Of a stretch of 55,644 bases of DNA, positions 4,131-54,702 are shown in pieces (within the stretch, counting starts at the first letter, position 1; every line of letters begins with the position of its first letter). The notes under the pieces are model-generated. The model did not search any database and was not told the DNA's origin. It was given only the letters and a program-made list of their open reading frames with translations. Both the position numbers and the translations under genes were made by a program. The DNA comes from a virus. Its lineage: Duplodnaviria > Heunggongvirae > Uroviricota > Caudoviricetes. The stretch is from IMG/VR virus record IMGVR_UViG_2537561830_000005; one strand, given 5' to 3'.

Positions 4131-6723
4131 TTGCATATTCCTTAGCCCAGCGGGGCAGTGATAATGTCTTAATAGCTGGCCATTCATCGGTATTCAGGCA
4201 GTCAGACAGGGTTCGCAGATTGCGGTGATATTCCTGTTGACCTGCCAGTTTTGCTTCTTCGCCCATCATGAAAATTTCAACCGGATAACGTCCGCATTCA
4301 ATAGTTGTGCTGGCAACCAGAAAAACGAAAGTTGGCTGCACTCCAAACTGTGCTTCATAACCGTCACTGTAGAACGCATCCTGAACGTGATAGCGGTAGT
4401 CGTAATAAGCGGTTTTGAATCGTTGAATATCCGCCGTAGTTTTCACGTCCATGATCCAGTGAAATTCAGGGATAATTTTGTCCGGACGGCACCGACACAA
4501 AATTCCTGTTTCAGGATCTTCCCAGTAAATTGATGATTCAGCGTGTCCGGCGCTTTCAACAAGCCATTGCCCCAGCGGCAAAGCCATAACGCTTTGATAC
4601 ATGAGTTCAATTTTCCGGCCTTCTTCCGCAGTGATAACCGTTTTTCCTGTGCTTGCGCATTCCATCAGAAACGCTTTCTCTTCTTCTTTTCCGGCGTTTG
4701 TACGGCGGTTAAATTCAGGTGCTACGATAAAGCGGTTACTGAATTCTTCCGGTTCAAGTACCCGGCAGTGGAAAGCAGTTCCTAAATCGAGCGTTTTTGT
4801 CTTTGTGGTGTCCACGGGGGCATTTTTACGCCACAAATATAGTGCCGGAGTATCAGCAATGTCATCGAGCTGAGACTTACTGATACCGGGACCCGCGTGG
4901 TAATTCTCATTCGAAATTCCGTAATAAATACCTGGCTCTATGTCTTCTACGATTACGGGATCTGCGACTTCGCCAGTTTCATCACTGCAATCGCGATGCG
5001 GATCGCTGCCAGCATTCTCATTGTGCGGATGTTCAGCGCCTTCCATTTCCTCCGGATCATTTTCCTTAGCTTCAACCTGACTCTCTTCATCGAATGTTTC
5101 CTGGTATGTTGCGTCGCCCATCACCGCACCACAGTCAGGGCAGTTATCCCCGCCAGTCTGGCCGCAGGCATTGCAGGCTATTTCCGGTTCCTGTTGCACT
5201 ACTGGCTCAGGTTGATTCATATCTGGGCTGGTTTTTTCCGTTTCTGGCTGGTTCTGGTACACACAATCGCGAGTCTGGATCCCCTTTACCCATTTCGGAT
5301 CGTTCGGGTCGCTAATTCCGTCAACAAATTCACCACGTGATGCAGCAAGCAATTTATCGGCATCGACAGGATTTTTTGATGGAATGTTTTTCCGGGCTTC
5401 ATGGAGTTCTGCCCGCAGTTCCTGATATTTCGCATCAACAGAATTTACCTGTGACTGAGCATCCAGCGGCTGCGTGTCCTGATGATGTTCAGTTGCGTCC
5501 GGTTCCATTGTTTCAGCCTCTCCCTGTTCAACTGCCGTTGTTCCAGATGGTTGCGGTTTTTCTTCATCATCCTGTTTTCCTTCTTCTGTTACTCGCTGCG
5601 GCATCGGGGCAGAGGAGCGACCGCAGGCAATATCCACGATTTCCGGATCAGGGTTGGCATGATCGGTTTCAGTCAGTACTTTGTTCAGATATTCAGTGAC
5701 GTGCGCGGGGATGACCTCGATCCCAATTGGTGCTTCTTTTACGGACGCAACCACGATGGCGCGGGAATAATCCAGCCCGCCAGGCATGGTGATGAATTTG
5801 TCGCGGAAAACAGAAAAGGGCGGTTTATTTTCAGCGATAATTTCCTCAATGCGTTTAGCGTGTGCCGGATGAAGGTTATAGATGTCCAGATCCATTGAAC
5901 GGGCCAGTACGCCAGTGGCTACGTCGCGCGCCAGTGACGTCAGATCGTGTACGAAACCTTCGCCGCGATCGGTGAGGTTTCCGCCGCCAGCATTAGCACC
6001 GGAAGCCGTGCAAGTGATGTGTGAAACACGATTACCCTTCATCCACTCTTTTGTCAGCAGTCCTCGATCGGTGTAGTCAGCGTTCAGGTATGCTTCGAAA
6101 AAAGCAGTTATCAGTCCCAGGTTTGAATTACCAGGATTAGGGAAAACTTTGTCAGTGTCACGAACCAGTTTGTGGAGTTCGCGAATTTCCAGCGGGTCGA
6201 GCAGGCTGGTTTTGTGGGAAACAGCCAGGGCAGTAACAGCCGGTAGTTCTTCAGCCCGAGCAATGTGTAATGCCTGGAGTCCGTCGCGTGAAACGTGCGT
6301 TACCGGTTTTTCGCTGCCGTGTTGAGCAAGCCAACGAATGGGCAGTTCCTGGCCAGAAATTGGGAGTAGCATATTCTCCTCAATCTCAGTCATGTCTTCG
6401 CCGTTGACGTTGGTATTGCCTTGATAGTGAGCGTTGTCTGGTGCTGCTCCCGGTTTTAGTTCCCATGTCATGGAGTCTTTGCTGAGTTGATAGCGTTCAC
6501 TCCAGGTAAAATCGATCTCACCTTCAGCGGGCAGGTCATTAACGACAGGAAAATTCGTGGCAACAGCTTTAAAATAGCTGCTCAGTTTTTTACCTGACTT
6601 AACGATCAGGTAGTCCAGAGTGGCACAGGTCGATTCAAAATCGTTGCTTGCCCACAGGACGACGTCAGGTTCACCGGATGATTTTTTCGCTTTCCGTAAC
6701 AGGAAGAGTGGTTTTGTGCTCAT
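4123..6723 (-). CDS. recE: RecE exonuclease VIII
   Basis: 866-aa ORF recalled as K-12 RecE; overlaps recT. Confidence 0.95.
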
Positions 6724-6824
6724 TGTTTTTTAACCTCAACTCAGATTAAAATTCGTTTTGTTCAGTGAATGATCTTGCCGGATACACACTGTTCATAGCC
6801 TGCGCCATACGCAGGCTATTTCTT

Positions 6825-7100
6825 TCAGATTTCACCTTTTAATTTCATTGCAATTAGAGTTGCCAGAAATTCGGCTTTTTTTTCTGCGGGCAGATTCTTT
6901 CCGATATGCACCAGGCACATTTTTTTGACACCTTCATCAAGTGTTTTTACGTTGCCTGATGGACCATCGATATCAACCACAGTGAATGGGGTTTCTTTAT
7001 TTTCTGTTTTAATTACGTAGCCAATGCGCTTTCCTTCCAGATTCACCTCGTGAACAATGTCATCGGTAGTTACAACAGTGGCTTCATAATTGGTAATCAT
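6825..7100 (-). CDS. racC: Rac prophage protein RacC
   Basis: 91-aa product MITNYEATVVTTDD... with an AGGAG-like RBS; the track ORF starts upstream. Confidence 0.85.
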   Translation of the reverse strand: MITNYEATVVTTDDIVHEVNLEGKRIGYVIKTENKETPFTVVDIDGPSGNVKTLDEGVKKMCLVHIGKNLPAEKKAEFLATLIAMKLKGEI

Positions 7101-7174
7101 GTTTTTCTCCTTAATTAAGGTTGAGCGAATACCTGCCATTTCTGGCATAAATTCAGTTTCGAATAGTCAATTAA

Positions 7175-7345
7175 TTAAAGTTCATGTGCCATCTGGTCTT
7201 TTTCGGCACAAGCTTCACTGCAATATTTTCTCGGTTCGTCTTTTGATAAAATCCCGTGCATGAAGTGAAGCATTCTTTCAATAGCTTTGCTTTCTTCAAC
7301 GTCTTTTTTGCAAAGGTGGTAAGCACATTTTATTTTCTTAGTCAT
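7175..7345 (-). CDS. ydaE: small Cys-rich protein YdaE
   Basis: Hand-translated 56-aa [17 protein letters not shown]...CSEACAEKDQMAHEL, absent from the ORF track; its ATG overlaps the kilR stop by 1 nt. Confidence 0.7.
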   Translation of the reverse strand: MTKKIKCAYHLCKKDVEESKAIERMLHFMHGILSKDEPRKYCSEACAEKDQMAHEL

Positions 7346-7566
7346 CACCATGACTCCGCCTTTACAGGTAAACCATCACGACCGAGGAAGACTTTAATCA
7401 TGCGGTCAGTAATGAATGTTTTTGTGGTCAGGTTACGAATATATAGTTTTCGCTTTTTAATATTGTTTGCCGAGGCAATATATGTCCGGCCTTCATGAAG
7501 AACATAATCGCCAGGAGTCACACACTGACGTGGTATTTCATCAGTTCCGAAGTGATGTGCAATCAT
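7345..7566 (-). CDS. kilR: FtsZ-inhibiting killing protein KilR
   Basis: 73-aa product [15 protein letters not shown]... recalled as KilR. Confidence 0.85.
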
Positions 7567-8007
7567 AATTATCTCCATTTTTACAAATGAACTTTGTTGA
7601 TGCGGTGTCTGGTGCCTCCAGGTGACTGCAACCAGTTAACAATTACAGTCGGCTTTCCCACCCAAACCAATAAGGACTAACATGACTTTTAACTGTGCCA
7701 CGTGCGCTTAGCCGCATTCACCGCATCACAAAATTCACTTTAAAAAGGGCGGACATCAGCCGAACTTCAAGAAAAAAACTGATGCCGCCAGGACTACACA
7801 CAGCAATGTCGTTATTTACAACCGGAGGCGCACTCCCTCCATTTAAATTTAACAGACAAGACCGACTCTTTATGGATATCGGAAATGCGCCTTCGTGTTG
7901 TGCCCGGTTTTATTTCACCACCTCCGGGCTTCGGTGGTCTCGGCTATACCCCTACAGCGAGAGCTTGTGTTAACATTTCAATACCCTTACAGTTGAGAGT
8001 TATTGAT

Positions 8008-8496
8008 ATGTTGGATGTATTTACTCCATTGTTGAAACTTTTTGCTAACGAGCCACTCGAAAGACTTATGTATACGATTATCATTTTTGGTCTCACTCTC
8101 TGGCTGATACCGAAAGAGTTTACTGTCGCATTCAATGCTTATACTGAAATACCTTGGCTCTTTCAGATTATCGTTTTTGCCTTTTCTTTCGTGGTCGCCA
8201 TTTCCTTCTCAAGATTGCGAGCACATATTCAAAAGCATTATTCATTACTACCAGAGCAACGAGTATTGCTTCGTTTATCTGAGAAAGAAATCGCTGTATT
8301 TAAAGATTTCCTTAAAACAGGAAATCTTATTATCACTTCTCCTTGCCGTAACCCGGTTATGAAAAAATTAGAACGGAAGGGCATCATTCAACATCAGAGT
8401 GATAGCGCAAACTGTTCTTATTATCTCGTCACCGAAAAATACTCCCATTTTATGAAGTTATTCTGGAACAGCAGGAGTAGACGTTTTAATCGTTAG
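8008..8496 (+). CDS. sieB: superinfection exclusion protein B
   Basis: 162-aa membrane protein MLDVFTPLLKLFANEPLERL... recalled as SieB; ATG at 8008. Confidence 0.85.
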   Translation: MLDVFTPLLKLFANEPLERLMYTIIIFGLTLWLIPKEFTVAFNAYTEIPWLFQIIVFAFSFVVAISFSRLRAHIQKHYSLLPEQRVLLRLSEKEIAVFKDFLKTGNLIITSPCRNPVMKKLERKGIIQHQSDSANCSYYLVTEKYSHFMKLFWNSRSRRFNR

Positions 8497-8648
8497 CTTA
8501 CTGTGTGCTTCTCCAACCATCGGCGCGCACCAGTTTCGGTTTTAAATGTTTTGCTTTTGGTATACGTCATGGCAGTGAACGTTCCATCCTGGTTGGGGAA
8601 CACGCCGCACACCAGGGATTCGTTGTTGCCGAGGTCGATTTTTTGCAT
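8493..8648 (-). CDS. ydaF: small protein YdaF
   Basis: Hand-translated 51-aa ORF MQKIDLGNNESLVCGVFPNQ..., below the track length cutoff. Confidence 0.6.
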   Translation of the reverse strand: MQKIDLGNNESLVCGVFPNQDGTFTAMTYTKSKTFKTETGARRWLEKHTVS

Positions 8649-8658
8649 TTTGCGAATC

Positions 8659-8793
8659 TCACATCTTGTTGCTACGTATAGCGACTTCTGCCTGCCAGAG
8701 ATCCCAGTCGTTGCTGCGTAAAGCCTGCACAGCCTGGTTGTAAGTGATACCGCAACAATCCATCAAATACTGAACTACTTCGTAATGCACCAT
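8659..8793 (-). CDS. ydaG: small protein YdaG
   Basis: Hand-translated 44-aa ORF MVHYEVVQYLMDCCGITYNQ..., below the track length cutoff. Confidence 0.6.
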   Translation of the reverse strand: MVHYEVVQYLMDCCGITYNQAVQALRSNDWDLWQAEVAIRSNKM

Positions 8794-8963
8794 CTTATCT
8801 CTCCCCTTAACGCCGGGTGGCGGAACTAACTGCTGCACTGCAAAATTTGAATCCCGCCGTCATGTTCTTACGCCTCGGGCTGGCTACTTAACCCCTGACC
8901 ACTGCCTGGTAACTCGAAGTATTGCCCTGCATTCTGTGGGGCGGGGTGGGTGGCAGGCATATA

Positions 8964-9005
8964 ATGTACTTTGTGTTCATTGTTGTAAAGTACATTTAGT
9001 ACATT
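8964..9005. promoter_or_regulatory. putative OL-like operator cluster downstream of racR
   Basis: Three copies of ATGTACT or its complement (8964-8970, 8987-8995, 8997-9005), including the inverted pair GTACTTT-N14-AAAGTAC, next to a TATAAT-like hexamer. Confidence 0.4.
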
Positions 9006-9079
9006 TTATGTGTAAAAAAATGAGATGGGATAAAGTGAAGCACAAACCCGGAGGAAGGCGCTACCGGATTTATGCTGGT

Positions 9080-9499
9080 TTAAGAGGCTTTTTGTTTTTT
9101 CTTTCGTGCTAACTCTTCGTAAATTGCATTGTACTTCTGTTTTTTCTCTTCAAGAGTTTTTAAAAGTTCATCTGTCTCACTGTCAGGGAGCTCGTCCAGA
9201 AGGTCAATGATGATTTTTTGTCTTGGATTTAACTCCTGATAGAAACGTACCTGTCCACTTTCTTCTGTATCCTCTCCCAAAAGATAGGTTGGTGTTGTTC
9301 CTATTAGTGTTGCTAATTCCCTTAATTTCTCCCGGCGAGGAATTGTTTCGCCATTAAACCATTTGCTAACCGCTTTTGGTGTTAATTTCATTCGACGGGC
9401 AATTTCTGCCTGCCTTCCATGTTGTTCATAACCAGCGTTTTCACAGGCTAGCGCAAGCCTACTGGCGAACTCTTTACGCGCTTTATCTTCATGAACCAT
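9080..9499 (-). CDS. racR: prophage repressor with XRE-type helix-turn-helix, RacR position
   Basis: 139-aa ORF with an HTH (RQAEIARRMKLTPKAVSKWFNG), divergent from ydaS; identity to K-12 RacR not verified. Confidence 0.7.
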   Translation of the reverse strand: MVHEDKARKEFASRLALACENAGYEQHGRQAEIARRMKLTPKAVSKWFNGETIPRREKLRELATLIGTTPTYLLGEDTEESGQVRFYQELNPRQKIIIDLLDELPDSETDELLKTLEEKKQKYNAIYEELARKKKQKAS

Positions 9500-9578
9500 A
9501 AGTTCAATGATATTCGCTCTTGAATGTACTGTCAGTTCTGTTATAGCATGTACTCAAAGTTCACATTGTGAGGGTGAT
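9500..9578. promoter_or_regulatory. divergent racR / ydaS promoter-operator region (OR-like)
   Basis: 79-bp gap between divergent starts with two direct ATGTACT copies (9524-9530, 9548-9554), the same heptamer as in the cluster at 8964-9005. Confidence 0.45.
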
Positions 9579-9833
9579 ATGAACCAGAAAACACTTGAAG
9601 ATGTAATCAAAACTGTTCGCGTTGCTGTTGTGGCCGACGTTTGTGGTGTCAGCCAAAGAGCAATCTATAAATGGATGGATAACGGAAAATTGCCTCGCAC
9701 AGAATATACCGGCGAAACAAATTACGCTGAAAAAATCGCTCTTGCATCAAACGGATTATTTTCTGCCGATGCAATTTTAACTATTGGCAGGAATAAAACT
9801 ACTACGAAAAAGCTGATGGGAGTTGATTCATGA
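9579..9833 (+). CDS. ydaS: Cro-like HTH protein YdaS
   Basis: ATG at 9579 with a GAGGGTG RBS (the track ORF begins at 9507, too close to the racR start); stop overlaps the ydaT ATG. Confidence 0.7.
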   Translation: MNQKTLEDVIKTVRVAVVADVCGVSQRAIYKWMDNGKLPRTEYTGETNYAEKIALASNGLFSADAILTIGRNKTTTKKLMGVDS

Positions 9834-10255
9834 AAATCAAGCATGAACACATCCGCATGGCGATGAATGCCTGGGCGCATCCGGACGGCGAAAAAGTACC
9901 GGCTGCGAAAATTACCAAAGCGTATTTCGAGCTGGGAATGACGTTCCCGGAACTGTATGACGACAGCCATCCGGAAGCCCTGGCTCGCAATACTCAGAAA
10001 ATTTTCCGCTGGGTGGAGAAAGACACCCCTGATGCGGTTAAAAAAATTCAGGCGTTGTTACCAGCTATCGAAAAAGCAATGCCACCTCTGCTGGTGGCCC
10101 GAATGCGCAGTCATAGCTCAGCCTATTTTCGGGAACTAGTGGAGACGCGGGAACGACTGGTGAGAGACGCTGATGATTTTGTCGCAGTGGCGATCGCTGG
10201 TTTCAACCAGATGAATCGTGGTGGCCCTGCAGGAAATATTGTGGCTGTGCATTGA
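9830..10255 (+). CDS. ydaT: YdaT protein, reported toxic partner of YdaS
   Basis: 141-aa ORF coupled to ydaS by an ATGA overlap. Confidence 0.8.
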   Translation: MKIKHEHIRMAMNAWAHPDGEKVPAAKITKAYFELGMTFPELYDDSHPEALARNTQKIFRWVEKDTPDAVKKIQALLPAIEKAMPPLLVARMRSHSSAYFRELVETRERLVRDADDFVAVAIAGFNQMNRGGPAGNIVAVH

Positions 10256-10326
10256 CTCGCAATATTCATACCGGATCGCTTCCGGCAATTTGTGAGTAAA
10301 AAGATTCGGTATCAAAAGAGGTGAGT

Positions 10327-11397
10327 ATGGCTAACGCCTGGCTCAGATTATGGCATGACATGCCAAATGACCCTAAGTGGCGAACAATTGCCAGGGTGTC
10401 AGGGCAGCCAATTGCAACAGTGATGGCAGTGTATATCCACCTCCTGGTGAGCGCGTCACGAAATGTCACGCGAGGTCACATTGAGGTCACGACAGAAGAT
10501 TTGGCAAGTGCGCTCGACGTGACAGAAGAGGTAATTGATTCAATTTTGCAGACGATGCAGGGGCGGGTACTTGATGGTGATTTAATCACTGGATGGGAAA
10601 AACGCCAGGTGCTTAAAGAGGACAACGGCAATATTTCGCAAACCGCAAAATCTCCTGCAGAGCGCAAGAGGGCGCAGCGAGAGAGGGAAAGAAAGCGGGA
10701 ACAAAATGGCGATTGTCACGGCGCGTCACGAAATGTCACGCATATGTCACGACGAGTCACGACAGATAAAGATACAGATAAAGATACAGATCAAGAAGAT
10801 CAAAACACTATGGTCCATGGCGTAAAAAACGCCACGAACCAGGCAGGGGATGTTCAGACCGTCAATCTTGGTCAGCCAGCAGGCACGACACCGGAAGCCG
10901 ATTCAGCGTATGCGCTGAAAGCCGATTCGGGCGCTGTGCAGCAGGTGATGACCGCAAGGCCGGAGCAATCACACCAACTGCAGCAGCCCGAAGCCGATTC
11001 CGCCATTCAGCGGGAAGCCGATCGGGTAGTCCCGGAAAACACCGGGCAGTCTGTGGGACGAGTGGATTATCCGGATGTGTTCGAACAGGTCTGGCGGGAG
11101 TACCCGTTGCGTGCTGGGGCAAACCCGAAGAAATCCGCTTTCAGTGCCTGGAAGGCCAGATTACGCGAGGGGGTGCCACCAGAGGCCATGCTGGATGGCG
11201 TGAGGCGTTACGCAAGATACTTGGCGGCTACCGGGAAAACGGGAACGGAATTTGTTCAGCGAGCGACGACGTTTTTTGGACCGGACCGGAATTTTGAGAA
11301 CCCCTGGTTGCTCCCGGTAAGCGGCACGAACAACCAGCGTTGTGTGAATCATATTTCTGAACCGGATAACGAAATTCCGCCGGGCTTCAGGGGGTAA
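10327..11397 (+). CDS. ydaU: replication initiator-like protein (lambda O-like position)
   Basis: Product MANAWLRLWHDMPNDPKWRTIARVSGQPIA...; AAGAGG RBS 6 nt upstream of the ATG; contains the iteron clusters below. Confidence 0.8.
   Translation: MANAWLRLWHDMPNDPKWRTIARVSGQPIATVMAVYIHLLVSASRNVTRGHIEVTTEDLASALDVTEEVIDSILQTMQGRVLDGDLITGWEKRQVLKEDNGNISQTAKSPAERKRAQRERERKREQNGDCHGASRNVTHMSRRVTTDKDTDKDTDQEDQNTMVHGVKNATNQAGDVQTVNLGQPAGTTPEADSAYALKADSGAVQQVMTARPEQSHQLQQPEADSAIQREADRVVPENTGQSVGRVDYPDVFEQVWREYPLRAGANPKKSAFSAWKARLREGVPPEAMLDGVRRYARYLAATGKTGTEFVQRATTFFGPDRNFENPWLLPVSGTNNQRCVNHISEPDNEIPPGFRG
10455..10490. repeat. iteron-like cluster 1: four GTCAC motifs at 10-11 bp spacing
   Basis: GTCAC at 10455, 10465, 10475 and 10486, inside ydaU. 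Confidence 0.5.
10715..10790. repeat. iteron-like cluster 2: five GTCAC motifs plus a GATAAAGATACA tandem
   Basis: GTCAC at 10715, 10725, 10735, 10746 and 10756, then GATAAAGATACAGATAAAGATACA at 10765-10790. Confidence 0.5.
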
Positions 11398-19513: not shown

Positions 19514-20326
19514 AACCACCTCATCAAAAACATGCATTATAAATGCGTGTTTTTGATGGTTATGTCAAGCTGTTATGAAACACATAATTGATATGTTGAT
19601 TAGAGGAGAAGATATAATAAATATGGTTGTTTTTCGTATAACTATTTGTTTTACTTTTAGTTTATGCATTCTGTGTGTTAGGAATAAGTTATTAAAGTTT
19701 AATCAAAAAATCTCGATGTAGTCCACATAGATTATTGTTACTGAACCTTATTGTGTGTATTAGTTGTGTTCTGAAATTTCAGCTTAATTATTTATGATGT
19801 ATTTTTTAACGATAAATATTTTCCCAGGATACCTTTACTGTGTATATAAATAAATTATATACACATAAATAATGTAAAGGCGTCCTTTTAGATATATCTT
19901 ATCAAATGTTAATGACTTGAGTGGGAAATATGATTCCAGCAACTTATCATGTGGCTACTTTATAAAAATAATGCCCATATAAAACAACAAGCGAAAAGGA
20001 TTACGGATAAAAAAGGAGCGAGATGTGCGAACTTGTTATTTTCCATGTTTAACCACCTTAAATAATTGATGATGACGGGATGATTGCATCTGTAATGCTT
20101 TTATTGAAATGTTATGATAAAAAAGAACTTTTGCATAACATTAAAATGTAATTTATCTAATCGTTTTTAATAATAAATGTCGTATTTCTATCCTTGTACC
20201 AGCTATTTGATATGTAGTGTTTGTTCATGCTATGTGGGGCTTTACACCATAGCCAGTTTATTTATACTTTATTCGTCAGCCTGAACAACTGGCATCTGCT
20301 GCGCTGCGCCATCGAGAGATTGAGAA

Positions 20327-20926
20327 ATGGCGCATATACAACTGGTCAAACAAACTTCTTCTGGTTTACTTCTCCCGGCGACGCCGGAGAGTTGCGATTT
20401 TCTGCATCAAATCAAAATAGGTGAGTGGATACACGCAGACTTTAAGCGTGTGCGTAACTACGCATTCCACAAGCGTTTTTTCAAACTCCTGCAACTGGGA
20501 TTCGATTACTGGACTCCGGTCGGTGGGGCGATCACGCCTCGCGAACGAGAACTGCTGTCTGGTTTCGTTGATTACCTGTGCGAATCAGTTGGTCGGGAAC
20601 ACACGCCAGCCCTGAGTGATGCCGCAGAGCAATACCTTAACACCGTTGCGACTCGTAGAACCCGGGATACGGCGTTGCTAAAGTCGTTTGAGGCTTTCCG
20701 CGAGTGGGTAACCATTCAGGCCGGATTTTACACCGAGCATATTTATCCGGACGGTAGCCGTGGGCGTCGGGCAAAATCCATCGCTTTTGCGAATATGGAC
20801 GAAGTCGAGTTTCAGCAGGTTTATAAATCTGTACTGAATGTGCTGTGGAACTGGATTCTGTTTCGTAAATTCTCCTCTCAGGAGGAAGTTGAAAATGTGG
20901 CCGCACAACTACTGGAGTTTGCGTAA
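20327..20926 (+). CDS. phage nin-region protein, possibly DUF1367 family
   Basis: 199-aa ORF; stop overlaps the next ATG (TAATG); family assignment from recall, not verified. Confidence 0.6.
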   Translation: MAHIQLVKQTSSGLLLPATPESCDFLHQIKIGEWIHADFKRVRNYAFHKRFFKLLQLGFDYWTPVGGAITPRERELLSGFVDYLCESVGREHTPALSDAAEQYLNTVATRRTRDTALLKSFEAFREWVTIQAGFYTEHIYPDGSRGRRAKSIAFANMDEVEFQQVYKSVLNVLWNWILFRKFSSQEEVENVAAQLLEFA

Positions 20927-24024: not shown

Positions 24025-24240
24025 ATGAAATCCATGGACAAAATTTCAACAGGCATTGCCTACGGCACCTCCGCAGGCAGTGCTGGCTACTGGTTTTTAC
24101 AGTTGCTCGATAGAGTAACTCCGTCACAGTGGGCTGCAATCGGTGTGCTGGGTAGTCTGGTATTTGGCCTGCTGACGTACCTGACAAACCTTTATTTCAA
24201 GATTAAAGAAGATAAGCGCAAGGCTGCGAGAGGTGAATAA
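24025..24240 (+). CDS. holin, EssD-like
   Basis: 71-aa product [26 protein letters not shown]... with GGAGGTGAGG RBS; the track ORF starts upstream. Confidence 0.85.
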
Positions 24241-48761: not shown

Positions 48762-49361
48762 ATGCGTAAAGTTTGTGCAGCCATTTTGTCCGCAGCCATT
48801 TGTCTGGCCGTATCCGGTGCGCCTGTATGGGCGTCTGAACATCAGTCCACGCTGAGCGCGGGGTATCTTCATGCCCGGACGAACGTTCCCGGCAGTGATG
48901 ATCTGAACGGGATTAACGTGAAATACCGTTATGAGTTTACGGACACACTGGGGATGGTGACGTCGTTCAGCTATGCAGGAGACAAGAATCGCCAGCTTAC
49001 CCGTTACAGCGATACCCGCTGGCATGAAGATTCCGTGCGTAACCGCTGGTTCAGCGTGATGGCGGGGCCGTCTGTACGCGTGAATGAATGGTTCAGCGCG
49101 TATGCGATGGCAGGCGTGGCTTACAGCCGTGTGTCGACTTTTTCCGGGGATTATCTCCGCGTAACTGACAACAAGGGAAAAACGCACGACGTGCTGACCG
49201 GAAGTGATGACGCTCGCCACAGTAACACCTCTCTGGCGTGGGGAGCTGGCGTGCAGTTTAACCCGACCGAATCCGTGGCCGTTGACGTCGCTTATGAAGG
49301 CTCCGGCAGCGGTGACTGGCGTACCAACAGTTTCATCGTTGGTGTCGGTTATAAATTCTGA
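48762..49361 (+). CDS. lomR: Lom-like outer membrane protein (Ail/Lom family), copy 1
   Basis: 199-aa product with signal peptide [24 protein letters not shown] and a C-terminal beta-barrel ending GYKF. Confidence 0.9.
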
Positions 49362-52711: not shown

Positions 52712-53305
52712 ATGCGTAAAGTTTGTGCAGCAATTTTGTCCGCAGCCATTTGTCTGGCCGTATCCGGTGCGCCTGCATGGGCGTCTGAACATCAGTCCAC
52801 GCTGAGCGCGGGGTATCTTCATGCCTCGACGAACGTCCCCGGCAGCGATGATCTGAACGGGATTAACGTGAAATACCGTTATGAGTTTACGGACACACTG
52901 GGGCTGGTGACGTCATTCAGCTATGCAGGAGACAAGAATCGCCAGCTGACCCGTTACAGCCGCTGGCATGAAGATTCCGCTCGTAACCGCTGGTTCAGCG
53001 TAATGGCGGGGCCGTCTGTGCGCGTGAATGAATGGTTCAGCGCGTATGCGATGGCGGGTGTAGCTTACAGCCGTGTGTCGACTTTCTCCGGGGATTATCT
53101 TCGCGTAACTGACAACAAGGGGAAAAAGCACGATGTGCTGACCGGAAGTGATGACGGTCGCCACAGCAACACGTCTCTGGCGTGGGGGGCTGGCGTGCAG
53201 TTTAACCCGACCGAATCCGTGGCCATTGATATTGCTTATGAAGGCTCCGGCAGTGGTGACTGGCGCACTGACGGTTTCATCGTGGGTGTCGGTTATAAAT
53301 TCTGA
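52712..53305 (+). CDS. Lom-like outer membrane protein, copy 2
   Basis: 197 aa from ATG 52712; differs from copy 1 by a 2-codon deletion and a few substitutions. Confidence 0.85.
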   Translation: MRKVCAAILSAAICLAVSGAPAWASEHQSTLSAGYLHASTNVPGSDDLNGINVKYRYEFTDTLGLVTSFSYAGDKNRQLTRYSRWHEDSARNRWFSVMAGPSVRVNEWFSAYAMAGVAYSRVSTFSGDYLRVTDNKGKKHDVLTGSDDGRHSNTSLAWGAGVQFNPTESVAIDIAYEGSGSGDWRTDGFIVGVGYKF

Positions 53306-54102: not shown

Positions 54103-54702
54103 ATGCGTAAAGTTTGTGCAGCAATTTTGTCCGCAGCCATTTGTCTGGCCGTATCCGGTGCGCCTGCATGGGCGTCTGAACATCAGTCCACGCTGAGCGC
54201 GGGGTATCTTCATGCCTCGACGAACGTCCCCGGCAGCGATGATCTGAACGGGATTAACGTGAAATACCGTTATGAGTTTACGGACACACTGGGGCTGGTG
54301 ACGTCATTCAGCTATGCAGGAGACAAGAATCGCCAGCTGACCCGTTACAGCGATACCCGCTGGCATGAAGATTCCGTTCGTAACCGCTGGTTCAGCGTAA
54401 TGGCGGGGCCGTCTGTGCGCGTGAATGAATGGTTCAGCGCGTATGCGATGGCGGGTGTAGCTTACAGCCGTGTGTCGACTTTCTCCGGGGATTATCTTCG
54501 CGTAACTGACAACAAGGGGAAAAAGCACGATGTGCTGACCGGAAGTGATGACGGTCGCCACAGCAACACGTCTCTGGCGTGGGGGGCTGGCGTGCAGTTT
54601 AACCCGACCGAATCCGTGGCCATTGATATTGCTTATGAAGGCTCCGGCAGTGGTGACTGGCGCACTGACGGTTTCATCGTGGGTGTCGGTTATAAATTCT
54701 GA
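54103..54702 (+). CDS. Lom-like outer membrane protein, copy 3
   Basis: 199-aa ORF nearly identical to copy 2. Confidence 0.85.
   Translation: MRKVCAAILSAAICLAVSGAPAWASEHQSTLSAGYLHASTNVPGSDDLNGINVKYRYEFTDTLGLVTSFSYAGDKNRQLTRYSDTRWHEDSVRNRWFSVMAGPSVRVNEWFSAYAMAGVAYSRVSTFSGDYLRVTDNKGKKHDVLTGSDDGRHSNTSLAWGAGVQFNPTESVAIDIAYEGSGSGDWRTDGFIVGVGYKF

Follow-up and report, generated by a model that had tools for sequence, protein, structure and literature searches.

Heptamer clusters on both sides of a Rac-like prophage repressor gene as probable OL and OR operators of an HK022/933W-type immunity switch

Two clusters of the heptamer ATGTACT (or its complement AGTACAT) flank the repressor gene of a Rac-like prophage in the 55.6-kb stretch of viral DNA analyzed here in full (the window). 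As judged from sequence, the clusters are very probably the OL and OR operator sets of a lambdoid immunity module (~8954-9823) in the racR/ydaS slot of the prophage. This OL/OR assignment, made in the original prediction, is supported by a shared consensus, overlap with promoters, co-inheritance in 81 loci and homology to HK75, HK022 and 933W. Since palindromic sites flank the repressor gene as in HK022 and 933W, the module is a further example of an HK022/933W-type switch; on/off switches of this kind are known and ordinary among phages.

The exact heptamer occurs eight times in the window, with five copies between 8964 and 9554 (Table 1); the two clusters on either side of the repressor gene are real. 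Shuffling of the window gave an expectation of 4.6 copies, and 8 or more were reached in 13 of 100 shuffles. Thus, the total alone is unremarkable. In contrast, the clustering is unusual. The Poisson probability of five copies within 591 bp is 2e-9 to 4e-7, depending on the background used (whole window or local AT-rich non-coding DNA), and it is still ≤8e-5 when corrected for ~190 overlapping positions of a 591-bp interval. If the heptamers were AT-rich words of non-coding DNA brought together by chance, or promoter hexamers without a dedicated protein, this would agree with the window total, with the AT-rich nature of the region and with the overlap of the sites with promoter-like hexamers. 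However, it does not account for clustering that persists even against the local AT-rich background, nor for the conservation described below.

The heptamer is not the unit, as had been proposed, but part of a longer palindrome, ATGWAC-N5-GTWCAT; the functional unit, (A)TGWAC-N5-GTWCA(T), is an inverted repeat of 15-17 bp. The consensus used for scanning, TGWAC-N5-GTWCA, was taken from the HK75 annotation (HK022-derived) and is independent of the window. Only three perfect matches were found in the 55.6 kb, at 8965, 9492 and 9549, and two further named sites, at 8989 and 9525, have one mismatch. With up to one mismatch allowed, the window contains 16 matches (5.2 expected), a number reached in 0 of 100 shuffles. 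We assign the five named sites to two predicted left operators (OL1 and OL2) and three predicted right operators (OR1, OR2 and OR3). Only two right-hand sites had been predicted originally; OR3 contains no exact heptamer and had been overlooked. The spacings are 24 bp for OL1-OL2, 24 bp for OR1-OR2 and 33 bp for OR2-OR3, and OL and OR are 560 bp apart. A third OL site, sought by eye and by pattern scans at +22-24 bp and +53 bp from OL2, was not recognizable, and pattern scans downstream of cro for a far-right operator (OFR) like that of HK022 gave no site between 9564 and 20212. Note that the one-mismatch site at 20212-20228 was rejected as compatible with chance (~0.4 such matches expected by our own estimate).

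Table 1. Positions of heptamers, predicted operators and promoters, and neighboring genes in the window
Feature	Position	Strand	Sequence	Basis and remarks
ATGTACT/AGTACAT copies, clusters	8964 (+), 8989 (-), 8998 (-), 9524 (+), 9548 (+)			
Remaining ATGTACT/AGTACAT copies in window	14569, 18007, 27854			Only three outside clusters
Leftward operon start: ydaG-like gene (8659-8793), ydaF (8493-8648)	8493-8793	-		RefSeq annotation of identical locus; Pfam DUF1391
PL, predicted leftward early promoter	8961-8989	-	TTTACA (8989-8984), 17-bp spacer, CATTAT (8966-8961)	Promoter scan, 9/12
OL1 operator (predicted)	8965-8979		TGTACTTTGTGTTCA; 17-mer ATGTACTTTGTGTTCAT at 8964-8980	Perfect consensus match; aligns with HK75 oL1; includes heptamer 8964-8970
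OL2 operator (predicted)	8989-9003		AGTACATTTAGTACA; 17-mer at 8988-9004	One consensus mismatch; aligns with HK75 oL2; includes heptamers 8989-8995 and 8998-9004
Stem-loop right behind repressor stop codon, possible repressor-transcript terminator	9039-9076	-		MFE -21.3 kcal/mol
Immunity repressor gene, 139 aa, XRE/HTH_3 DNA-binding domain of HK022/933W cI type	9080-9499	-		Pfam HTH_3, BLASTP
OR3 operator (predicted)	9492-9506		TGAACCATAAGTTCA; repressor-sense strand TGAACTTATGGTTCA	Perfect consensus match
PRM, predicted maintenance promoter	9507-9535	-	CTGACA (9535-9530), 17-bp spacer, TATCAT (9512-9507)	Promoter scan, 10/12
PR, predicted rightward early promoter	9520-9549	+	TTGAAT (9520-9525), 18-bp spacer, TAGCAT (9544-9549)	Homology
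OR2 operator (predicted)	9525-9539		TGTACTGTCAGTTCT	One consensus mismatch; aligns with HK75 oR2 GGAACTGATAGTACA; includes heptamer 9524-9530
OR1 operator (predicted)	9549-9563		TGTACTCAAAGTTCA	Perfect consensus match; aligns with HK75 oR1, 933W oR1; includes heptamer 9548-9554
cro-type gene, 84 aa, in ydaS slot	9579-9833	+		BLASTP; weak Pfam HTH_17
YdaT box, around ydaT-family start codon	9823-9840		TTGATTCATGAAAATCAA	Sole perfect match in window

The sites coincide with promoters predicted from consensus or homology. A promoter scan independently placed PL and PRM exactly over operator sites; PR, with 8/12 consensus matches, was below the threshold of the scan and was not called. Predicted PL is the positional homolog of the annotated HK75 pL (TTTACA-17-CATCAT), with a start near 8954 that would read into ydaG, ydaF, kilR and recET (further left of ydaF lie kilR, racC, recE and recT). 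OL1 overlaps the -10 side of PL, and OL2 abuts and overlaps the -35. This pair straddles the predicted TTTACA-17-CATTAT promoter, in line with the proposal that the left cluster is placed to control the leftward operon. Predicted PR is the positional homolog of the annotated HK75 pR (TTGACT-18-TAATAT). OR1 is located at its -10/+1 region, and OR2 lies between its -35 and -10 and over the -35 of PRM. OR3, identical in sequence to both oR1 and oR3 of HK75, abuts the -10 of PRM and covers the repressor ATG (9499-9497), corresponding to the sites over the cI start codon in HK75 and 933W. The position of PRM matches that of the putative pM annotated in 933W, and from its predicted start near 9500 we infer a leaderless repressor mRNA.

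The inverted pair noted originally in the left cluster, GTACTTT-N14-AAAGTAC, is present and has 10-nt arms, AATGTACTTT (8963-8972) and AAAGTACATT (8987-8996). With arms that are 100% complementary, 14 nt between them and a location past the 3' end of the repressor gene, the expected place of a terminator, the pair could be a DNA or RNA hairpin (a repressor-transcript terminator or a recombination site) instead of a part of operators. However, the arms are AT-rich, are not followed by a U-tract and were not called by a terminator scan. The complementarity is broken in 72 of 81 relatives by T instead of A at position 8994, with no compensating change at 8965; the heptamer copy at 8989-8995 is thus not a conserved one. 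Furthermore, the heptamers of the right cluster are direct, not inverted, yet they fit the same 17-bp palindrome, and a much stronger hairpin lies nearer the stop codon, at 9039-9076. Taken together, these findings make a hairpin function highly unlikely and favor the operator assignment. The 9039-9076 stem-loop may itself end the repressor transcript. It has a poor U-tract, with common SNPs (9055, 9056 and 9058) within its loop, and a terminator scan of 8800-9700 called neither this nor any other structure. An Rfam scan of 6500-11000 detected no family at gathering score.

To follow the sites through relatives, we used 81 loci carrying the same repressor. Homology breakpoints never part the left cluster from the repressor in these loci, the nearest being at 8938, and homology ends at 8938-8953 on the left side of the module and at about 9824-9853 on its right side. 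Thus, operators, repressor and cro are inherited and exchanged together as one immunity module. In the interval 8954-9012, the SNPs leave a footprint, with just 1 of 16 common variable positions falling within the 24 positions that make up the half-sites (Fisher p = 7e-4). The half-sites of OL1 are kept, common SNPs being found in its 5-bp spacer; those of OL2 are invariable, with variation at spacer positions 8994, 8997 and 8998; and OR2 is invariant throughout. Where the repressor type differs (K-12 Rac, phages 689R5 and 640R1), the clusters are replaced en bloc by another motif, and in the immunity types of 689R5 and 640R1, too, the left gap holds copies of the type's own intergenic motif.

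Phylogenetic depth was assessed by a search for homologous proteins, followed by analysis of the contigs encoding them. In relatives whose repressors are 62-65% identical, the OL pair persists, even where HigBA or an AAA ATPase is inserted as cargo between it and the repressor gene. In alignments of OR and OL with HK75, 933W and the Salmonella and Raoultella relatives, the half-sites are invariant and the spacers variable, and a PL core of AAAATGTACT-N4-GTACTTTACA-N4-TGAAC-N5-GTACAT is kept. In Raoultella L087, an additional OL site occupies the +53 bp position relative to OL2, and in our own reading the HK75 sequence contains a putative OL3 half-site at +53 bp; the OL2-OL3 distance in HK022 is 53 bp (PMC8053113). 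A scan of genome contigs with the repressor returned one locus only, in Shigella (100% identical). Of 5,426 complete E. coli genomes, about 1,050 carry the module at ≥80% coverage; it is also present in phage Tritos (complete genome). In sum, palindrome and spacing recur in relatives with diverged flanking and spacer bases, SNPs avoid the half-sites, and a different repressor type goes with a different motif in the same places. These observations render a chance cluster extremely unlikely.

We next consider the encoded proteins. Compared with HK75 cI, the repressor has 47% identity over ~97 aa (E 1e-30); with 933W cI, the figure is 51% over residues 1-73 (E 1e-24). Its recognition helix, TPKAVSKWFNGE, is invariant among repressor homologs and near-identical to the HK75 counterpart TPKAISKWFNGE, and the recognition-helix residues K42 and K46 are conserved. 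The cro product shares 56% identity with HK75 cro and 47% with 933W cro (BLASTP). For HK022 and 933W, published work documents binding of each repressor to the operators of its own phage (PMC8053113, PMC3317979). 933W has five natural 15-bp operators, and its repressor requires K42 and K46 for specific binding (PMC3317979). By analogy, we infer that the 139-aa repressor specifically binds the five sites. Note that its DNA-binding domain is ~50% identical to those of the characterized repressors, and the exact specificity could therefore differ. A PDB sequence search with the repressor gave only a weak match, to the N-terminal domain of P22 c2, and Foldseek with its AF2 model gave generic XRE-HTH matches only, none at E ≤1e-3, with no useful match for the C-terminal helices.

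In lambdoid cI repressors, dimerization and cooperativity are mediated by an S24-type C-terminal domain. No Pfam match to Peptidase_S24 was obtained with the 139-aa repressor, the C-terminus of which consists of two helices in a ~60-aa tail (AF2 model). Since the LexA-like S24 domain, which serves RecA-stimulated autocleavage, is present in sister repressors that share this DNA-binding domain, the protein is a variant in the induction and oligomerization module, with the operator system unaltered.

The sites might be bound by YdaT (the CII analogue) or by Cro alone rather than by the 139-aa repressor. In K-12 Rac, YdaT also binds the racR-ydaS gap (PMC11879457). Lambdoid Cro shares operators with the repressor, and Cro binding is therefore expected in any case. 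However, YdaT has a site of its own, published as TTGATT-N6-AATCAA (PMC9986795, PMC11879457), and the perfect copy in the window, the YdaT box, is nowhere near the clusters. It is the site of a separate regulator, outside the heptamer system, and marks the right edge of the swappable module; the ydaT-family product matches Pfam YdaT_toxin (E 1e-9). Moreover, the heptamer sites change together with the type of repressor and cro, whereas the ydaT family is common to different immunity types, and the recognition helix of the repressor is nearly identical to that of HK022-type cI, whose operators have TGWAC-N5-GTWCA. We consequently regard binding by YdaT or Cro alone as very unlikely and favor the 139-aa repressor as the protein that would occupy the sites.

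The module shares its chromosomal slot and flanks (ydaF, ydaG, kilR and recET on the left, the ydaT family on the right) with K-12 Rac. Both have a ydaT-family gene with a YdaT box, operator copies in the intergenic region and in the ydaG-racR gap, and a repressor without an S24 domain. A K-12-type RacR/YdaS switch would fit this arrangement. However, the 99.7% identity to K-12 Rac extends as far as 8953, then ends and resumes only at 9824, in a 30-bp island (9824-9853) that holds the YdaT box. The names racR and ydaS, used for the two genes in the original prediction, do not denote orthologs: BLASTP aligned the repressor with RacR over 33 aa, in the HTH only (36% identity, E 1e-3), and gave no significant similarity to YdaS (E 1.4). 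The operator differs as well, being TAGGC-N3-GCCTA in K-12, and the RacR operator (T/A)TAGGC-N3-GCCTA(T/A) has no match with up to one mismatch in 8900-9600, the sole match in the window being at 24050. In K-12, this slot contains two RacR-type sites of its own, TAGGTAATGCCTA and TAGGCTATGCCTA, 25 bp apart, and sites in the K-12 racR/ydaS intergenic region have been footprinted (PMC9638921). Since K-12 homology ends at 8953 and K-12 has its own operators in the slot, the genes are not racR/ydaS orthologs. The functional analogy stands, while a K-12-type switch has next to no probability.

The closest likeness is to HK022 and HK75. The consensus and the spacings (24, 33 and 24 bp) equal the annotated HK75 values, OR3 lies over the cI ATG, PL and PR are homologous, and the cI DNA-binding domain and cro are 47% and 56% identical, respectively. 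OL and OR are likewise separated by a few hundred bp, 560 bp in the window and about 700 bp in HK022 (PMC8053113). In contrast to HK022/HK75, the repressor ends in a 60-aa helical tail without the S24 autocleavage/oligomerization domain, and neither a third OL site nor an OFR downstream of cro was found. The flanks are Rac-type ydaG/kilR/recET and ydaT (the CII analogue), not nun/putL and cII as in HK022. With 933W, the module shares 15-bp operators with the half-site (C/T)G(A/T)AC, three OR and only two OL sites, an oR3 over the cI start codon, a putative leaderless pM, a 51% identical DNA-binding domain and conserved K42 and K46. The OR spacings are 24 and 32 bp in 933W and 24 and 33 bp in the window. 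Differences to 933W are the outer base of the preferred half-site (C in 933W, T in the window), residue 41 of the repressor (S in 933W, P in the window) and the cI C-terminal domain, which is of S24 type in 933W.

The resemblance to lambda lies in the textbook logic of its OL/OR switch: the repressor gene stands between two operator clusters that overlap divergent early promoters, OR3 serves in autoregulation, the 17-bp pseudo-palindromes are ~24 bp apart, and the cI mRNA is leaderless. However, the operator sequences are unrelated to those of lambda, the spacing to OR3 is 33 bp, and no rexAB is present between cI and OL. In addition, PR and PRM of the window overlap, with starts ~54 bp apart, whereas those of lambda are back to back. 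The lambda switch logic is summarized in PMC8630535, where leaderless mRNAs of cI (lambda) and paaR2 (CP-933P) are documented. The same source describes PaaR2/YdaS/YdaT of CP-933P, with PL933P and OL1-3, as the experimentally tested switch of a Rac-like cryptic prophage (PMC8630535). As predicted for the window, a cI analogue without S24 and a Cro analogue control PR, PRM and a distal PL via repeated operators in CP-933P. Both in CP-933P and in the Salmonella relatives L084-L086, the repressor is separated from OL by cargo toxin-antitoxin genes. The operator consensus of CP-933P is different, being GTTTAGTAA within 18-bp palindromes.

Homology suggests that the 139-aa repressor would bind each operator as a dimer, via its HK022/933W-type helix-turn-helix. 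Occupancy of OL1 and OL2 would occlude PL and silence the leftward ydaG-ydaF-kilR-recET operon, while occupancy of OR1 and OR2 would occlude PR and silence cro, ydaT and the replication genes. Occupancy of OR3, over the repressor ATG and the PRM -10, would result in negative autoregulation of the leaderless repressor mRNA. HK022-type Cro would be expected at the same sites with the opposite order of preference. HK022 CI binds cooperatively to adjacent operators and forms an OL-OR loop (PMC8053113), whereas the 933W repressor is reported to be non-cooperative at adjacent sites (PMC3317979). With OL and OR 560 bp apart, the two might be joined in a loop, as with HK022 CI; the S24-type C-terminal domain is absent, and HK022 cooperativity and looping therefore cannot be carried over.

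The module leaves the understanding of lambdoid switches unchanged. It provides a precise switch map of five operators, three promoters and module borders for an immunity module that is common in E. coli yet uncharacterized, and it shows that the 'racR/ydaS' slot label hides several non-orthologous immunity types. The map may be used in annotating prophages, in predicting homo-immune prophages and in naming the promoter that controls the kilR/recET arm. The combination of an HK022-type DNA-binding domain, HK022-identical operators and a short non-cleavable C-terminus tentatively raises the idea, which we consider rather doubtful, that the repressor is SOS-blind, is switched off otherwise (for instance by an antirepressor or the YdaT/Cro circuit) and confers host cross-immunity to HK022/HK75-type phages. 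If so, a resident Rac-like prophage would protect its host against superinfecting HK022/HK75-type phages, whose operators the repressor should recognize.

The heptamer ATGTACT or its complement occurs eight times in the whole 55,644-bp window, compared to 4.6 copies expected from shuffles. This total is unremarkable, but the clustering is remarkable: five of the copies fall within 591 bp (see the table), a cluster whose probability lies between 2e-9 and 4e-7 under the different background models and is at most 8e-5 once all window positions are corrected for, even with the local AT-rich background. This confirms the heptamer clusters flanking the repressor gene that the original prediction had interpreted as OL/OR operators. 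The inverted pair described on the left was also found (AATGTACTTT at 8963-8972 and AAAGTACATT at 8987-8996, arms 14 nt apart). Read in context, the heptamers belong to a 17-bp pseudo-palindrome, ATGWAC-N5-GTWCAT. The heptamers are real, but the unit is a palindrome of 15-17 bp rather than a 7-mer, and the right cluster contains, besides its two heptamer sites, a third site that the heptamer search overlooked.

Features of the immunity region. Operators are named by homology.
Feature	Position	Strand	Description
Clustered heptamers	8964, 8989, 8998, 9524, 9548	+, -, -, +, +	ATGTACT or complement
OL1	8965-8979		17-bp site 8964-8980, ATGTACTTTGTGTTCAT
OL2	8989-9003		17-bp site 8988-9004, AAGTACATTTAGTACAT
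OR3	9492-9506		17-bp site 9491-9507, ATGAACCATAAGTTCAA; fifth site
OR2	9525-9539		17-bp site 9524-9540, ATGTACTGTCAGTTCTG
OR1	9549-9563		17-bp site 9548-9564, ATGTACTCAAAGTTCAC
Predicted PL	8989 to 8961	-	TTTACA-17-CATTAT, consensus scan
Predicted PRM	9535 to 9507	-	CTGACA-17-TATCAT, consensus scan
Predicted PR	9520-9549		TTGAAT-18-TAGCAT, homolog of HK75 pR
Repressor gene	9080-9499	-	139-aa HTH_3 protein without S24 peptidase domain
cro gene	9579-9833	divergent from repressor	84-aa HTH protein
YdaT-family gene	9830-10255		follows cro gene

Because the 17-bp consensus was derived from the window's own sites, an independent test was needed. We used the consensus TGWAC-N5-GTWCA, taken from the operators of the HK022-type phage HK75 that are annotated as similar to HK022 oR1-3 and oL1-3 (TGAACTTATGGTTCA, GGAACTGATAGTACA, TGTACTACTGGTACT and TGAACTTTAGGTACA). 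Perfect matches occur only at 8965, 9492 and 9549 in the whole window, and those with one mismatch include 8989 and 9525. Allowing up to one mismatch, the window contains 16 matches versus 5.2 expected, a number reached in none of 100 shuffles. The centre-to-centre spacings of OL1-OL2, OR1-OR2 and OR2-OR3 (24, 24 and 33 bp) equal those of HK75, while the OR spacings of the Shiga-toxin phage 933W are 24 and 32 bp. OR3 has the same sequence as HK75 oR1 and oR3, and covers the repressor start codon in the window, HK75 and 933W alike. Note that ATGTAGTGTTTGTTCAT at 20212-20228, located upstream of gene 20327-20926 in AT-rich intergenic DNA, differs from the operator consensus at one position; this match is probably fortuitous, with ~0.4 such chance matches estimated for the window. 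Three copies of a 15-mer, TGAATGAATGGTTCA, are present in the final 7 kb (49081-49095, 53025-53039 and 54422-54436), suggesting a repeated segment that may belong to tail-fibre or other repeat genes and is unrelated to the immunity region.

The labels racR and ydaS given earlier to the two divergent genes did not hold, as the genes are not orthologs: the match of the repressor to K-12 RacR is limited to 33 aa at 36% identity, and cro and K-12 YdaS show no significant similarity. The N-terminal domain of the repressor is 47% identical to HK75 cI and 51% to 933W cI; cro is 56% and 47% identical to the respective Cro proteins. All retrieved homologs share the same recognition helix (T40-PKAVSKWFNG-E51), from which that of HK75 departs at one conservative position (V against I). 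In 933W, which has 15-bp operators and five natural sites, recognition-helix residues K42 and K46 are essential (PMC3317979); both are conserved in the window's repressor. An AF2 model of the latter comprises an HTH domain (2-74), a disordered linker (77-88) and helices 92-103 and 106-138. To the left of the repressor gene lie ydaG-like and ydaF genes, followed in an identical RefSeq locus by sieB, kilR, ydaE, racC, recE, recT and ralR, indicating that the setting is a Rac-like lambdoid prophage.

A consensus promoter scan of 8800-9700 returned exactly two sites, each of which lies on the minus strand and overlaps operators: the predicted leftward promoter PL and repressor maintenance promoter PRM. 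The annotated HK75 pL (TTTACA-17-CATCAT) is the positional homolog of this PL, and HK75 pR (TTGACT-18-TAATAT) corresponds to the predicted rightward PR, which with 8/12 consensus matches is under the scan threshold. The -10 element of the predicted PRM ends 7 nt before the repressor ATG, so that the mRNA would be leaderless, as also for lambda cI and CP-933P paaR2 (PMC8630535). The ~115-nt leader from the predicted PL to the ydaG start (8839-8953) is common, with some differences, to four immunity types: K-12 Rac (99.7% identical), phages 689R5 and 640R1, and the window. An Rfam scan of 6500-11000 found no family.

Co-inheritance was analyzed in 81 loci that share the window's repressor (99-100% identical in amino acids). 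On the left arm, homology ended at 8938, 8843, 8802, 8791 or around 8515, and on the right arm mostly at 9853, with no breakpoint between repressor and left cluster in any of the 81. The complete genome of phage Tritos (OV696610, 2786-3961) carries an identical module beside a dicB/dicF left arm; its annotation names the ydaT-family gene 'Rha family transcriptional regulator' and starts cro upstream (327 rather than 255 bp). Polymorphism is high in the OL region (> 35 haplotypes), with the common variants in the 5-bp spacers (8973, 8974, 8994, 8997, 8998) and flanks; only 1 of the 16 positions that commonly vary is among the 24 positions of the half-sites (Fisher p = 7e-4). In 72 of the 81 relatives, 8994 is T. 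Thus, heptamer 8989-8995 and the perfect inverted repeat of 10 nt, although present in the window, are peculiar to its allele. That the left inverted repeat acts as a hairpin or terminator is not supported: it is AT-rich and without a U-tract, most relatives carry a disrupted copy with no compensating change, and a stronger hairpin exists at 9039-9076. This minus-strand stem-loop (-21 kcal/mol), directly 3' of the repressor stop, has a poor U-tract and common SNPs in its loop, and possibly serves as a terminator between the repressor transcript and PL.

The borders of the module show in the comparison with K-12 Rac. Window positions 7001-8953 are 99.7% identical to K-12 Rac; homology breaks at 8953, 11 bp ahead of the first heptamer, and returns only at 9824-9853. 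Directly past the break, the ydaG-racR gap of K-12 MG1655 Rac (L002, 2631-2668) contains two RacR-type sites, TAGGTAATGCCTA and TAGGCTATGCCTA, 25 bp apart and flanking a minus-strand TTGACA-17-TATAGT. The same motif was footprinted in the K-12 racR-ydaS gap (PMC9638921), the only gap treated in the passages on RacR consulted. By sequence, the left region is a candidate OL/PL of K-12 Rac. Phages 689R5 and 640R1, with the same left border, likewise repeat their own intergenic motifs in the left gap (AATCTAAA...TTTAGATT and ATCAAAACAT, respectively). Left and right motifs therefore co-vary with repressor type across four immunity types. Together with the clustering statistics and the conservation pattern of the sites, this co-variation excludes chance or a pure promoter signal as the origin of the heptamers. 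A K-12-type RacR operator is rejected as the explanation, being absent from the window's immunity region. YdaT is an unlikely binder of the five sites, as its own box, TTGATTCATGAAAATCAA, sits elsewhere, its sole perfect copy in the window lying at 9823-9840. The spacer of this box contains the ydaT ATG (9830), and the box coincides with the 30-bp K-12 homology island at the right border of the module.

More distant relatives retain the arrangement. Salmonella repressors (62-65% identical) and Raoultella and metagenomic S24-bearing repressors (DNA-binding domain 62-72% identical) have a three-site OR with 24+33-bp spacing and, wherever sequence was available, an OL pair around TTTACA. The pair is kept even with HigB/HigA (Salmonella L084, 3053-3720, and L085, 3088-3755; HigB-toxin and HTH antitoxin-like genes) or a 480-aa AAA_15/AAA_21 ATPase (Raoultella L087, 3308-4750) between repressor gene and OL, the same 'moron' position as that of lambda rexAB and CP-933P paaA2-parE2. 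The HK022-type DNA-binding domain carries a 60-aa two-helix tail in the window and Salmonella, and an S24 peptidase domain in Raoultella and metagenomic relatives (L087, 2501-3223; L088, 2501-3208), with an invariant recognition helix. This domain swap should change prophage induction.

Our comparisons thus show five conserved palindromic, putative operator sites that overlap promoter-like hexamers, are co-inherited and co-vary with the repressor, and are homologous to HK022 and 933W operators. By homology to systems with published biochemistry, repressor dimers would bind each site, occupancy of OL1/OL2 and OR1/OR2 would shut PL and PR, OR3 occupancy would shut PRM, and Cro would use the same sites. 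In HK022, CI occupies neighbouring sites cooperatively and forms a loop between OL and OR (PMC8053113); the OL-OR distance in the window is 560 bp. However, the C-terminal part of the window's repressor (linker and two helices in the AF2 model) differs from that of HK022 CI, so that neither property can be assumed for it, and RecA-dependent cleavage is not expected without an S24 domain.

In conclusion, the five palindromes over predicted promoters, the HK75/933W homology and the co-inheritance with the repressor support the predicted OL/OR reading. All HK022/933W-type features testable by sequence were found, except the S24 C-terminal domain. No publication on this type of immunity region was found, although its module is common, being present at >= 80% coverage in about 1,050 of the 5,426 complete genomes of E. 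coli. OL/OR logic itself is not new, having been demonstrated experimentally in Rac-like prophages for CP-933P (PL933P with OL1-3; PMC8630535). The arrangement is exactly as a specialist would expect, and the evidence supports an HK022/933W-type OL/OR system that has been moved into a Rac-like prophage, where it occupies the racR/ydaS slot.
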